From IMG/VR virus record IMGVR_UViG_3300032315_001604, positions 96,001 through 160,000 of that record: 64,000 bases of DNA; one strand, 5' to 3'. The translations under genes were made by a program, and so were the position numbers. The notes under the pieces were generated by a model that had not been told where the DNA came from, ran no database searches, and saw nothing but the letters and a program-made list of their open reading frames with translations. Positions within the stretch are counted from its first letter, which is position 1, and each line of letters starts with the position of its first letter. Below, one piece after another: positions 44,191 to 48,617 of this stretch. Source of the stretch: a virus.

Positions 44191-45819
44191 ATGAGAAGAA
44201 GAATAACAATTGACAGTTCCAGAAGCAATGACTTAAATAAAAAGATTGCCATTGTTAAAAATCTTGGATCTAATGAAATTAAAAGAGCACCTGCAAATGC
44301 TTTTTTAAATGTAAATGATGCTGTCAGTAACACATTAGGTCGAAGACAACCTGTATTTTTTGAAGTTGATGTTGATTTAAATCAAAAAGTAGAAAACGTT
44401 CTACCCAAAAAACCTTTCAGAGATATTATTCAACCATTAGAATTAGAAGAAAACAGAAATGATATTATAGTTACTGCAAGTCGTTTGGAACCGATCCCAA
44501 CACCAACACCTACACCAACTCCTACCCCTACACCAACCCCACCACCTGCTATTTGTGTTTTTGGTGCAGGTACAAGTATTGTTAATGGAACTTATACATA
44601 TTCATCAAACTTAACATATAGCAATATATATGGAATTGTTTTAAAAAGAAACGCAACAACATTAAAATGGGAAATAAATCAAAATTCAACCAATTTATAC
44701 GATAACAATTATTCAGGATATGAACTTCCAACGTTTGGATGGAATGTAACAAACGGTTTGCCTAATGAGCCATCTATTTCACTTTTCCCTTGCCCGACAC
44801 CTACACCATACGTAGATTTGAATATCAGTTGGAATATGTGCGGATATACTGTTACAGCATATAATCCTTTATATAATGAAAACGACAGACCTAGAATAAA
44901 CACATTTAGAACCGATGGTTCTTATGTTGTTTATATGTCAGCAGGTTATGTTTTATATAACCCATACACATCATTAACAAGTATAGCACCATGGGGTAAC
45001 AGAACTGTTGGAACAGAAAGTATAAGCATACCATTAACAGAAGGACTTTCCGCAGGAATTGACTTATTTACAGCAATTAGCAGTATGCCAATTCCTATTT
45101 TTTCTCCAGATATATCAAATTGGTCTGTAGTTGATACAGGAAATTATAGAGAAAGAAAATATCAATTTATTGTTGGAAGTGAAGGAACATATAATATTTC
45201 TATAAATTATTGTGTACCTGTACCTACCCCAACACCAACACCAACACCTACCCCAACACCTACCCCAACACCAACACCTACTCCTACCCCAACACCAACA
45301 CCTACCCCAACACCTACCCCAACACCAACACCTACCCCAACACCTACACCTACACCAACACCAACACCAAGTTATACCCCAACTCCTACACCAACTCCTT
45401 CTATTACACCTACCCCAACACCTACACCTACACGCACACCTGAACCATCACCTACTCCAACACCACCCCCTACCCCAACACCGCCGCCGCCAACACCTAG
45501 TATTACTCCAACACCATCACCAAGTCCTTCACTTTCGCCATCACCAAGTCCTTCACCAAGTCCTTCACCAAGTCCTTCACTTTCGCCATCACCAAGTCCT
45601 TCACCAAGTCCTTCACCAAGTCCTTCACCAAGTCCTTCACCAAGTCCTTCACCAAGTCCTTCACCAAGTCCTTCACCAAGTCCTTCACCAACACCGCCAC
45701 CTCCTTCATCAACACCGCCACCTCCTTCATCAACACTGCCACCTCCTTCATCAACACCGCCACCGCCAACTGAACCGCCACCTACGAAAAACGTAACAAC
45801 AGCGTCAATGCCTTGGTAA
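44191..45819 (+). CDS. virion-module protein with long Pro-Thr/Pro-Ser (mucin-like) tracts
   Basis: PT linkers separating two globular domains; C-terminal PT, PS and PPPSST repeats. Confidence 0.7.
45217..45783. repeat. 6/12-bp coding tandem repeats (ACACCA/ACACCT; CCAAGTCCTTCA)
   Basis: Direct reading; encodes the (PT)n and (PS)n tracts. Confidence 0.9.
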
Positions 45820-45834
45820 TAATAAATAATATAA

Positions 45835-47652
45835 ATGCCATACTACTATCAACAAAAAATAGCAGAAAGATATTTCACATATCATAATCTATGTCATGAT
45901 GGTGAAAAAATAGAAAACAATAAGTTATATACTTTATTAGCACCTCAAAAATTTGGAACACTAGCTAAAAGTATTCCACCGTATATAACAACTAGTTTTT
46001 TATTATCTGGTGGATTGCCAACATATTATAACAACCTTGGAGCACCTGATCCTACTATCAAATGGAGTATAGTAGAAATACCAAATCAAATACCCGATTT
46101 AAATTTGATTACACCATCAGTAACATCATCAATTCCTATAAAAATATCAACAAGAAATCAATTTAGCTATCCGTTTTCGATGGTCATAAGAAATATGTAT
46201 TTCAAATTTAGATATTATATGACGCATCCCGCATCAGCAGCAAAGTTAAATCAGCCGAATCCTACTGGACGTTGGATATATAGCAGAAAACCAGCATTTA
46301 TAGAATATTTTACAAGATTTAATTATTTTAATTACGACTTTAAAAGAAAATATACCAATAATACTGTTTTATCTGCATATGGTGTAGATTTAGATTCATA
46401 TTATTATAACATTGTAGCATCAGACAGTAATAAAAATGTAACATATAAAGAAGTTAATGTTACATCAACAGATTTTATTGATAATAATACAATAAAAGAA
46501 TCTTTAAGTGGTTCATTTTTAAGTAATAATATAAATTCAAATATTAGAATATATCCTTTTAATTATGATTTATCAACACATCCTATTGATTTAAATACAG
46601 CCTTTGGCCATAAAGTTCGTTTATCAGAAAAAAATTTATTAGTTAGTGATCCTTTATCAGGCAATGGTAGAATATATGTTTATGCTTTAAACAAATATAT
46701 AACAGGAAATAAAATATTGCCTGATAAAATTTTGACATCAAATTTTGTTTTATCAGGATTTGGTAATGTTATAGAATATAAAGAAGTTAGAGATAAATCT
46801 AACAAAACATATAAAGAAGTTCTTGCCGTTTCAACACAAACAGCAAACAATTCAAGCGTTGAAATTTTTAGTAATAATTTTGTTACTAAGATAAGTGGAG
46901 TAAAAATGTTTAATCTTTTGAATATTTCTATAAGCGGTCAAAGATTTAGAAACGTTTGGTTTTCCAAAGGAATTAATCAAGAAAACTTAAGTGGTACTGG
47001 TTATTATGGTTATGATTTAGGATTACAAGTACCAGATACTACTTTTAATAAAACAACAAACGTTTTATATGTCAGTGAACCATATAACAATCAAGGAATT
47101 GTATATGTTTATGGTTATCATAATTTTACAAATACTTGGAATTATATCACATCATTATCTTCCGCAAGTGCATTAAATTATGGAAAAAGTATTTCAGTAA
47201 GTGGACCATATGCAATTGTATCTGCTCCAAATAGTATTATAAGCGGTGTTACAGGAGCATTAATAGATGTTTATAAATTTAGCACCTCAGATTTAAACGG
47301 TGTTCCATTATCCGCAGGTACAGCATTATTTTTAGACGGTGAACAATACGGTTTTTACACTTTAGAAAAAACCGATGAAATTTTTATTCCGTCAAATAAA
47401 AATTTAGGAAAACATATTGATTATAATGAAAATCAGTTAACAACTAATTTTTTAAATAGAAAAAATATAAATTTTTACGGAAACCATTTAGCTATTACTG
47501 GAGATAATAAAACAGAAATATACACAAGATATTTTGATAAATTTGAAAAAAATTGTCAAATATCTTCTGCAACAAAAAGTAAAATTTGGGAAAATATAAC
47601 ATATCAAATAAGTAATAGTGCAGTATTTTTAAATGCTGCAAGAGTTCTTTGA
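45835..47652 (+). CDS. virion protein with FG-GAP-like beta-propeller repeats
   Basis: FGHKVRLSEKNLLVSDP...GRIYVY and YGKSISVSGPYAIVSAP; TAAATA 6 nt upstream. Confidence 0.55.
   Translation: MPYYYQQKIAERYFTYHNLCHDGEKIENNKLYTLLAPQKFGTLAKSIPPYITTSFLLSGGLPTYYNNLGAPDPTIKWSIVEIPNQIPDLNLITPSVTSSIPIKISTRNQFSYPFSMVIRNMYFKFRYYMTHPASAAKLNQPNPTGRWIYSRKPAFIEYFTRFNYFNYDFKRKYTNNTVLSAYGVDLDSYYYNIVASDSNKNVTYKEVNVTSTDFIDNNTIKESLSGSFLSNNINSNIRIYPFNYDLSTHPIDLNTAFGHKVRLSEKNLLVSDPLSGNGRIYVYALNKYITGNKILPDKILTSNFVLSGFGNVIEYKEVRDKSNKTYKEVLAVSTQTANNSSVEIFSNNFVTKISGVKMFNLLNISISGQRFRNVWFSKGINQENLSGTGYYGYDLGLQVPDTTFNKTTNVLYVSEPYNNQGIVYVYGYHNFTNTWNYITSLSSASALNYGKSISVSGPYAIVSAPNSIISGVTGALIDVYKFSTSDLNGVPLSAGTALFLDGEQYGFYTLEKTDEIFIPSNKNLGKHIDYNENQLTTNFLNRKNINFYGNHLAITGDNKTEIYTRYFDKFEKNCQISSATKSKIWENITYQISNSAVFLNAARVL
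47607..47640 (+). promoter_or_regulatory. late-type promoter (AATAAGTA) and 5' hairpin for the ribozyme RNA
   Basis: TAAGTA at 47609-14, then TGCAGTATTT-TT-AAATGCTGCA (47619-47640). Confidence 0.55.
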
Positions 47653-48014
47653 TAGATAACATTTAAGATTGGGAGAATTCGGTGAAACTCTTCTAAAGAA
47701 GACAATACCGAGCCGAGCCGTTTTTAGGATAAAGGGAAACGGAAGGTGTAGAGACTAGAGGATGAGCCTAACAATAAGCCTCACAAGAACCCAACAATTT
47801 TATATTTGCGAAAATATAAAAATTGAAGATATAGTCCAAACTTTATGGTGACATAAAGATTAATAAAATGACGCTTCTAAACGGCAACGTCCACGGACAT
47901 CAGCGCAAACTGGAGGTACGCCCCTTTGGCGGCGTTACCAAAAGGGCTTAGAAACAGTGGCTGGCTCCACCAAGGTACAAAAACGTGCCACATTAAATGT
48001 TATCTATTAAAGAA
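47645..48014 (+). ncRNA. circularly permuted group I intron (opened in the P2 loop)
   Basis: P3 47669-73/47790-94; P4 47678-83/47707-12; P5 47689-93/47698-702; P6a 47718-23/47737-42; P7 GACUA 47753-57/UAGUC 47832-36; P7.1-type insert; P8 47795-47825 (GCGA loop); P9 47841-58 (GUGA loop); omega-G 47870; P1 47974-78/47985-89 with U.G; split P2 47645-66/47993-48014. Confidence 0.85.
47871..47976 (+). ncRNA. predicted 106-nt circular RNA product (back-spliced exon)
   Basis: Lies between omega-G 47870 and the U.G splice site U47976; GC-rich and structured in an AT-rich genome. Confidence 0.7.
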
Positions 48015-48588
48015 ACTTAACTTTTTTCTGTTTATACAATTTTTGTATAATATTTTTTTCCCAATCTCCATCATGTTCTTTGGGTTTAGTATAAGATTTT
48101 TTAACCCAATAATGATGTTGATTTGACAAATCTTTTGAGAAATTATCAAGTCCTGCAATATACACGCTATCGTATAAATTTTCTAAAAGCCAAGAAATAA
48201 CTAAAACTCCACTAGAAGGAATTAAATTATCCGCTTTTTCTTTTAATAAAGTTTCTTCTTTTAATTTTTTTCTTAAACTATGATAAAACGATAAAGGAAT
48301 TCTCCATATTTGTTTTGGCGTATAGGGAGGATTTCCAGAATCTCCATGAACATAAAGAATTTTGTTGGGTCGAATATCATCATCTGTCGGTATTTGTTTA
48401 TCTCCCAAAGTACACCATACTGTTGTTTTACTGCCTACATATTTCTCATAACCTTTTATAGCAAATTTATTAAATCTAAAAATTGTATCAAAACTATCAA
48501 TTATTTTACCTTTTTTTTGAAACAGTAAAGAAGGTCCATTTCCTATAATAATAGCAGAATTTTCTTTTTTTAATTCTAATGGATTCAT
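48007..48588 (-). CDS. GT29 (sialyltransferase-like) glycosyltransferase
   Basis: IIIGNGPSLL..KKG.IID.FD.IFRFN...GYEKYVGSKTT (sialylmotif L-like), PSSG..VI..L...D.VYIAGLD (S-like), HHY, EHD...E (VS-like); start placed at MNPLE. Confidence 0.8.
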   Translation of the reverse strand: MNPLELKKENSAIIIGNGPSLLFQKKGKIIDSFDTIFRFNKFAIKGYEKYVGSKTTVWCTLGDKQIPTDDDIRPNKILYVHGDSGNPPYTPKQIWRIPLSFYHSLRKKLKEETLLKEKADNLIPSSGVLVISWLLENLYDSVYIAGLDNFSKDLSNQHHYWVKKSYTKPKEHDGDWEKNIIQKLYKQKKVKFL

Positions 48589-48593
48589 ATAGA

Positions 48594-48617
48594 TTTTGCG
48601 TAAATAATTACGCAAAA
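48594..48617. promoter_or_regulatory. perfect 10-bp inverted repeat between divergent genes
   Basis: TTTTGCGTAA-ATAA-TTACGCAAAA. Confidence 0.5.

Follow-up and report, generated by a model that had tools for sequence, protein, structure and literature searches.

A group I ribozyme of T4-like bacteriophages that is probably circularly permuted in loop L2 and predicted to release a small non-coding RNA circle

Here, we describe a compact group I ribozyme element of ~370 nucleotides (nt) at positions 47645-48014 (+ strand) of a 64-kb window, the whole stretch of viral DNA that was analysed (64,000 nt; positions 96,001 to 160,000 of IMG/VR record IMGVR_UViG_3300032315_001604), and provide comparative evidence that it is probably permuted and back-splices a small circle of non-coding RNA. 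The virus record comprises 195 kb at about 29% G+C, is ~92% complete and encodes T4-type portal, major head, scaffold, sheath-stabiliser and baseplate-wedge proteins; the genome that carries the element is therefore that of a T4-like myovirus. The element is present in one copy in the 195-kb genome and lies between the stop codon of a 605-amino-acid (aa) open reading frame (ORF; 45835-47652, +) and the stop codon of a convergent 202-aa ORF (48007-48615, -). A PHROGs family was found for neither of the two flanking proteins. No ORF of at least 70 aa lies inside 47645-48014; an earlier note on this DNA, made from the sequence alone, had reported no homing endonuclease.

The element holds the parts of a group I intron in a permuted order. 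An intact group I core ending at omega-G47870, as the earlier note had proposed, is recovered by the Rfam model RF00028, which scores 80.3 bits on positions 47615-47858 (E 1e-20) and 65.3 bits on 47645-48014 alone, with a cut-off of 50, and by RNAalifold, which draws P3 to P9 including P7.1. A search of the whole window at Rfam gathering thresholds returned no family, because the speed filters lost the intron in A+T-rich sequence; the score of 80 bits was obtained with permissive filters on a shorter stretch. As delimited by RF00028, the RNAalifold helices and pair counts, the catalytic core spans 47669-47870 (+) and comprises, all on the same strand, P3 (47669-73/47790-94), P4 (47679-84/47706-11), P5 (47689-93/47698-702), P6 (47718-23/47737-42), P7 (47753-57/47832-36), a P7.1-type hairpin (47758-61/47779-82), P8 (47795-807/47812-25), P9 (47841-47/47852-58) and omega-G at 47870, the last base of AAAAUG.

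The remaining parts of the intron follow the core. Positions 47871-47976 (+; 106 nt, 57% G+C), hereafter the exon, make up the predicted circle and run into a P1 hairpin, GGU|AC-AAAAAC-GUGCC (47974-47989, +; strands 47974-47978/47985-47989), with a U47976.G47987 wobble and a predicted 5' splice site after U47976. The first exon bases, A47871-G47873 (ACG), can form P10 (+) with the guide C47984-U47986 (CGU) on the far side of P1. Two arms of 22 nt enclose core, exon and P1. The 5' arm (47645-47666, +) ends 2 nt before P3 and is the counterpart of the 3' strand that P2 has in an unpermuted intron; the 3' arm (TTAAATGTTATCTATTAAAGAA; 47993-48014, +), the counterpart of the 5' strand, begins 3 nt after P1. 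They form 21 Watson-Crick pairs and one G.U pair, as had been noted before, and the 64-kb window has no other inverted repeat of at least 20 nt that reaches 90% complementarity within 600 nt. The earlier statement that there is no room for P1 and P2 in front of P3 thus holds inside the element, and a P1-like hairpin lies just upstream of it (47619-47640; discussed below). Core score, P1 with its U.G pair, omega-G and P10 are those of a group I intron with P1 placed downstream of the core. The canonical order is absent: 106 nt separate omega-G from the putative 5' splice site downstream, the two strands of P2 lie apart across the element, and the element does not interrupt a gene. What is found is the permuted intron-exon order, with the 3' splice site upstream of the 5' splice site and the break closed by pairing, and it is found in four lineages.

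Viral contigs were scanned for the conserved R and S elements of group I cores, which gave 117 loci (designated here by L numbers), and each locus was scored for a helix that joins bases just ahead of P3 to bases beyond P9. Helix length was used for this scoring in place of a ranking by RNA duplex energy, which was swamped by GC-rich noise. Besides the window, only L053 and L080 have a comparable helix, and both show the permuted layout, with the order 5' arm, core, AUG|AC, 66-72 nt, a GGGU|A hairpin with the U.G pair, and 3' arm; RF00028 scores 67.2 bits on L080 and 55.5 bits on L053. No comparable helix was found near the core in the remaining ~110 phage group I loci. With more specific patterns, further members came to light: two copies of L080 (L137 and L180), two near-copies of L053 (L162 and L178), the L053 variant L168, and L177, which represents a fourth lineage and has a 94-nt exon. 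A protein search with the upstream 605-aa ORF yielded ten homologues with 96-50% identity, and a ribozyme core follows the homologue in all nine for which DNA was retrieved. Eight distinct loci among these have the full layout (L397, L399 and L401-L406, of which L406 breaks off within the 3' arm); for the ninth homologue the contigs (L407/L408) end inside the exon. Altogether, the permuted layout is present in 12 metagenomic contigs besides the window, distributed over four lineages, and synteny of its position holds in nine contigs, even where the flanking protein has dropped to 50% identity. Exact-pattern scans of the viral contigs for the exon and tblastn of the same contigs with the neighbouring 202-aa gene gave no match.

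Support for the proposed pairings comes from the way in which they change between relatives. Pairs were counted on an alignment of eight orthologues, to which the following figures refer. In the proposed structure 96.4% of cells are paired, as compared to 42-45% when the 3' partners are slid by 1-3 columns, and 17 pairs show compensatory changes; none of 500 shuffles reached the observed values. The long-range P2 is paired in 97% of cells and has compensatory changes in five of its 22 pairs, for example U-A to C-G at three positions and A-U to G-C. With the alignment alone as input, RNAalifold recovers P2, P1, P3-P6, P7.1, P8 and P9. Across lineages the closing P2 helix measures 16-27 base pairs (bp), again with compensatory changes, and the inner parts of the arms are unrelated in sequence between lineages yet complementary within each element: GATAGATAACATTTAA/TTAAATGTTATCTATT in the window, GCAATTGTA/TACAATTGC in L080, CTAATTACGA/TCGTAATCAG in L053 and CAGATAATAATCAA/TTGATTATTATCTG in L404. 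Minimum-energy folds of single sequences contain P2 and P1 in all four lineages.

The two elements of splice-site choice, P1 and P10, were counted across lineages by script, as MAFFT misaligned the variable exon between lineages. Both omega-G and the U.G pair of P1 are present in 13 of 13 elements, so the hairpin reported downstream of omega-G is a constant feature; its exon part is invariant, GG(G)U opposite GCC(C), around a loop of 3-13 nt. P10 exists as had been claimed and, in the relatives, guide and first exon bases change in concert: ACG faces CGU in the window and L397, ACGAU faces AUCGU in L399 and L401-L403, ACC faces GGU in L080, ACUUUU faces AAAAGU in L177, and ACUUUUG faces UAAAAGU in L406. 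Counted from the first exon base, P10 comprises 3-7 uninterrupted pairs in 10 of the 13 elements, two in L404 and one in L053 and L168. The check that the earlier note had named, covariation of P1, P10 and P2 in homologues, therefore succeeded for P2 and P10, and P1 is invariant.

The exon itself is conserved. Within the lineage of the window its first ~45 nt and last ~35 nt are retained, with the 5' part ACGAUCCU..CGGCAACGUYYACGRACAUCAGCGCAAAC and the 3' part GGAACAGNRGCUAGRUCCAC..GGGU. Exon bases 5-10 pair with a ...UAGGAA... segment (47875-80/47948-53, +), a helix with compensatory changes in five of six pairs; a small hairpin (47889-92/47895-98, +) closes on a YACG loop; and a central GC hairpin (47921-29/47938-46, +) has wholly changed in sequence between orthologues with its pairing kept. 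The motif GGAACAGAAG recurs in exons across lineages. The exons are 66 to 130 nt long, and their lengths do not keep to multiples of three. A coding circle was rejected: lengths vary modulo 3, stop codons occur, most exons are without AUG and there is no consistent frame. Absence of a consistent frame together with the covarying helices indicates that the exon is a selected, structured non-coding RNA.

Other readings of the exon were tried. A tRNA or transfer-messenger RNA (tmRNA) identity, prompted by GCUCCACCA (47965-47973), was dropped, as this GCUCCACCA CCA is not kept in the orthologues; ARAGORN found no tRNA or tmRNA in the window, and Rfam had no match on the exon. A search for exon sequence antisense to the phage's own genes gave nothing better than E = 4.5 in the 195-kb genome. 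An internal repeat of the junction 8-mer, AGGUACGC (47914-21), lies within the variable hairpin and is not kept in orthologues either.

The permuted-intron reading of the earlier note is thus strengthened by the same order of parts in 12 other contigs and by covariation in P2, P10 and the exon helices. Judging from these comparisons, we consider it probable that the element is a natural group I ribozyme, with the circular permutation in loop L2 present in the DNA itself, which back-splices a circle of ~66-130 nt. Briefly, the P2 helix would reassemble the ribozyme and bring P1 to the core, where an external guanosine would attack after U47976. The freed 3'-OH of U47976, held by P10 (ACG/CGU), would then attack the bond after omega-G47870, thereby joining the exon ends into a 106-nt circle and leaving two intron fragments. 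The predicted circle junction reads CCAAGGU/ACGCUUC, or CCACCAAGGU/ACGCUUCU in its longer form. Its reported absence from the DNA of the locus extends to the whole 195-kb genomic DNA, where the junction 15-mer does not occur even with one mismatch. The useful product would be the circle or a linear derivative of it, made where the late structural genes of this T4-like phage lie. Catalysis, splice sites and circularity are what we infer from sequence in this model.

A sister family of the element occurs in ~25 further T4-like contigs (including L044, L108, L119-L136, L138-L140, L183, L267 and L272; for example at L108:2205-2600 (+), L129:6267-5960 (-) and L044:3796-4200 (+)). Its members have the same ribozyme clade after the octamer AGTTCTTT, and are without the downstream P1 hairpin and the 3' arm. 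This octamer (47643-47650 in the window) stands at the 5' edge of every permuted and every sister-family element and is kept even where it is unpaired, as in L177 and the sister family, and may mark where transcription starts or belong to the ribozyme. A relaxed AGTTCTTT pattern produced mostly chance matches in viral contigs, and its matches in unrelated bacteria, judged without a screen for a ribozyme core, were chance-like. In the sister family the ribozyme lies in the 5' leader of a gene for a protein of 500-1000 aa, and a tetramer before P3 is complementary, with a terminal U.G pair, to a tetramer 3-40 nt before the start codon of that gene. The pairs found, with the strand before P3 given first, are GGCC with GGCU|AAA, GACC with GGUU|AAA, GGGC with GCCU|AAA, GGUCC with GGACU|AAA, and GUCC(G) with (C)GGAU|. 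The partner predicted from the guide was matched in all three loci fetched afterwards. The sister family thus looks like the same ribozyme permuted in the P1 loop and aimed at the ribosome-binding region of late genes. A broader proposal, which we hold tentatively and judge to be a little short of evenly balanced, is that T4-like phages use one clade of group I ribozymes as stand-alone RNA-processing genes in at least two permutations. The form opened in L2 would make a structured non-coding circle (~66-130 nt) that acts on host or phage gene expression, and the form opened in the P1 loop would cut, and possibly circularise, the leader of a late gene and so control its translation. Two contigs with a sister ribozyme also carry tmRNA genes (RF00023, 109 and 105 bits), at L044:8096-8486 (+) and L129:3064-3452 (-).

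Several observations weigh against the proposed circle-forming element. P1 never varies and is therefore backed by conservation, not by covariation. P10 is weak in L053 and L168, where a single C.C mismatch at the second position is followed by three more pairs. The exon alone folds no better than shuffled sequence (z = +0.96), so that the evidence for its structure is comparative, not thermodynamic. Finally, there is a second candidate for P1, a 9-bp hairpin (47619-47640, +) with a U47624.G47635 pair that ends 4 nt upstream of the 5' arm. The covariance model aligns this hairpin as a conventional P1, with the U.G pair where it is expected, and it accounts for the 15-bit difference between the two RF00028 scores (80.3 and 65.3); the U.G hairpin is retained by six of eight close orthologues, and one double change in L399, from U-A to C-G, is compensatory. 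With this P1 the 605-aa gene would have a conventional intron at its 3' end, spliced in cis from U47624 to omega-G47870, by which the protein end ...SAVFLNAARVL would become ...SAVRF and the ligated RNA would read ...GCAGU/ACGCUUC.... However, the hairpin is paired in 79% of cells only in the eight orthologues, as compared to 97% for P2; its U.G pair has become U.U in L404 and L405 and is U-A in L053, the hairpin of L406 is a different one with Watson-Crick pairs only, and L080 has no convincing upstream hairpin. The guide of the upstream hairpin would give a P10 of 1 bp and, once P2 has formed, its 22 bp would separate the hairpin from the core. A hairpin with an internal U.G pair is also expected by chance in ~6% of 60-nt stretches of the A+T-rich window, and a terminator scan flags this one. 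Conventional splicing leaves the downstream P1, P10, P2 and the exon structure unexplained, and we regard it as very unlikely. Given its patchy conservation, 1-bp P10 and distal placing, we treat the upstream hairpin as a real but separate structure, perhaps the terminator of the upstream gene or the 5' hairpin of the ribozyme transcript.

More serious, while still improbable in our judgement, is the alternative that the permuted ribozyme is mainly a processing device, which cleaves at the downstream P1 or hydrolyses at omega-G and in this way sets RNA ends or separates upstream from downstream messages, with the circle absent or a by-product. The sister family, which puts the strand of the 5' splice site at the ribosome-binding region of late genes, would fit such a role, as would L080, where the portal gene follows the element on the same strand. 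In the window, however, the next gene is convergent and hence there is no downstream message to process, and neither the conserved sequence nor the covarying helices of the exon would be called for. Moreover, P10 serves only exon ligation, and its guide and the first exon bases are kept by covariation, which speaks for selection on the second step and thus on formation of the circle. Least probable of all we consider an inactive intron relic or a small mobile element with terminal inverted repeats that has been kept by chance. The place between convergent genes, the 22-nt inverted ends and the lack of an endonuclease gene are compatible with it; yet the Rfam score of the core exceeds the cut-off, structural selection acts on the exon, the sequences of the arms are not conserved and vary through compensatory substitutions, and the element is syntenic in nine contigs and present once in the 195-kb genome. 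A miniature inverted-repeat mobile element in particular was rejected on account of the single copy, the lack of a duplication flanking the arms and the covariation of the arms. A lariat-capping (GIR1) ribozyme was likewise set aside, without a model of its three-way junction, as P1 with its U.G pair, omega-G and P10 are all present and no endonuclease ORF follows. The preferred explanation thus remains a permuted ribozyme that probably forms a circle.

The element may be a late transcription unit of its own, and read-through from the upstream gene is equally possible. In L080, L053 and L177, TATAAATA-like boxes lie 5-6 nt before the shared AGTTCTTT at the start of the 5' arm; TATAAATA is the consensus of T4 late promoters. 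Behind the 3' arm, the window, L080 and L177 have U-rich tracts. Among lineages the sequence upstream of AGTTCTTT differs, with TATAAATA-like boxes in some and a hairpin TATTACAC...GTGTAATA in others. Just after the 3' arm in L080, the segment TTAAATTCACCTAGTTAT (L080:9099-9116) is complementary to ATGACTGGGTGAATTCGG (L080:8820-8837), which covers P3 and the start of P4; this is also seen in L137 and L180. A possible function of the TTAAATTCACCTAGTTAT/ATGACTGGGTGAATTCGG pairing is an alternative fold that holds the ribozyme inactive.

The genes next to the element vary among the relatives. The 202-aa ORF on the minus strand, orthologues of which match PF00777 (Glyco_transf_29, sialyltransferase family), is present in L397, L401, L402 and L403 and absent in L399/L400 and L404, where other genes come after the ribozyme. 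As L399 has the element without the minus-strand gene, the element is independent of that neighbour. On the other side, in the structural region, a 542-aa ORF (44191-45819, +) encodes very long Pro-Thr and Pro-Ser dipeptide repeats, and its sole PHROG match is a family of unknown function.

Engineered permuted intron-exon (PIE) constructs derive from the T4 td and Anabaena pre-tRNA-Leu group I introns. These constructs (reviewed in PMC4344496) resemble the phage element in having the 3' part of the intron, the exon and the 5' part of the intron in this order, in arms that hold the split ribozyme together, and in that circularisation of the exon is expected via two normal transesterifications. 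In contrast to PIE constructs, the phage element is natural and conserved, its break lies in L2, so that the 5' part consists of P1 and one strand of P2, and its arms are the P2 helix itself (16-27 bp) and not added homology arms; its exon is a short conserved non-coding RNA. The earlier note was not aware of a characterised natural permuted group I case. There is a precedent, however, in mushroom-coral mitochondria, where the giant group I intron ND5-717 is removed by back-splicing (Chi et al. 2019, PMC6545197). ND5-717 is likewise a natural group I intron with a permuted precursor and proceeds via a circular exon-containing RNA (PMC6545197). Its permutation results from an insertion of 18-19 kb in P8 together with transcription of the circular mitochondrial genome, and its exons are those of the protein-coding ND5, the message of which is restored by back-splicing (PMC6545197), whereas the phage unit is compact (~370 nt), stands alone, encloses a non-coding segment and interrupts no gene.

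In bacteria, group II introns occur naturally in circularly permuted form (Roth et al. 2021, PMC8637638); these also stand alone, interrupt no gene and release small RNA circles (PMC8637638), as predicted for the phage element. They belong to another ribozyme class, however, which uses branching and not an external guanosine, and there is no kinship in sequence or structure. With the canonical phage introns (T4 td, nrdB and nrdD) the element shares the same core, the P7.1-type insertion and near-identical R and S elements. Yet in canonical phage introns the 5' splice site lies upstream, the interrupted genes are conserved and a homing endonuclease is often encoded, none of which applies here. 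Unannotated group I cores beside HNH genes were also seen in the cultured Vibrio phage 1.193.O (L409, MG592562.1 ~89474), Shewanella phage 1/40 (L410, KJ018211.1 ~47255), where the core adjoins a short 'terminase large subunit' fragment, and Pseudoalteromonas phage H101 (L411, ~8067); these look like unannotated canonical introns and not like permuted ones. In the literature searched, which largely excludes subscription journals, no report of a compact permuted group I ribozyme from phages or bacteria was found. Back-splicing by group I introns is thus known from engineered constructs and one mitochondrial case; new is an independent phage gene, opened in L2, that is predicted to yield a non-coding circle.

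In textbooks, group I introns figure as selfish elements. The phages described here seem to retain such a ribozyme as a gene whose product is a small RNA circle, which parallels the permuted group II RNAs found in bacteria. If this is true, the design, with a break in L2, a long P2 and only ~40 nt downstream of the cargo, would be a compact natural solution to circularisation that is relevant to the production of circular RNA, and the 13 natural variants with their built-in compensatory mutations offer ready experimental material. For the phages themselves, it would mean a natural class of circular non-coding RNA, and the sister family, with its P1 split at the ribosome-binding site, suggests ribozyme-based control of late gene expression.

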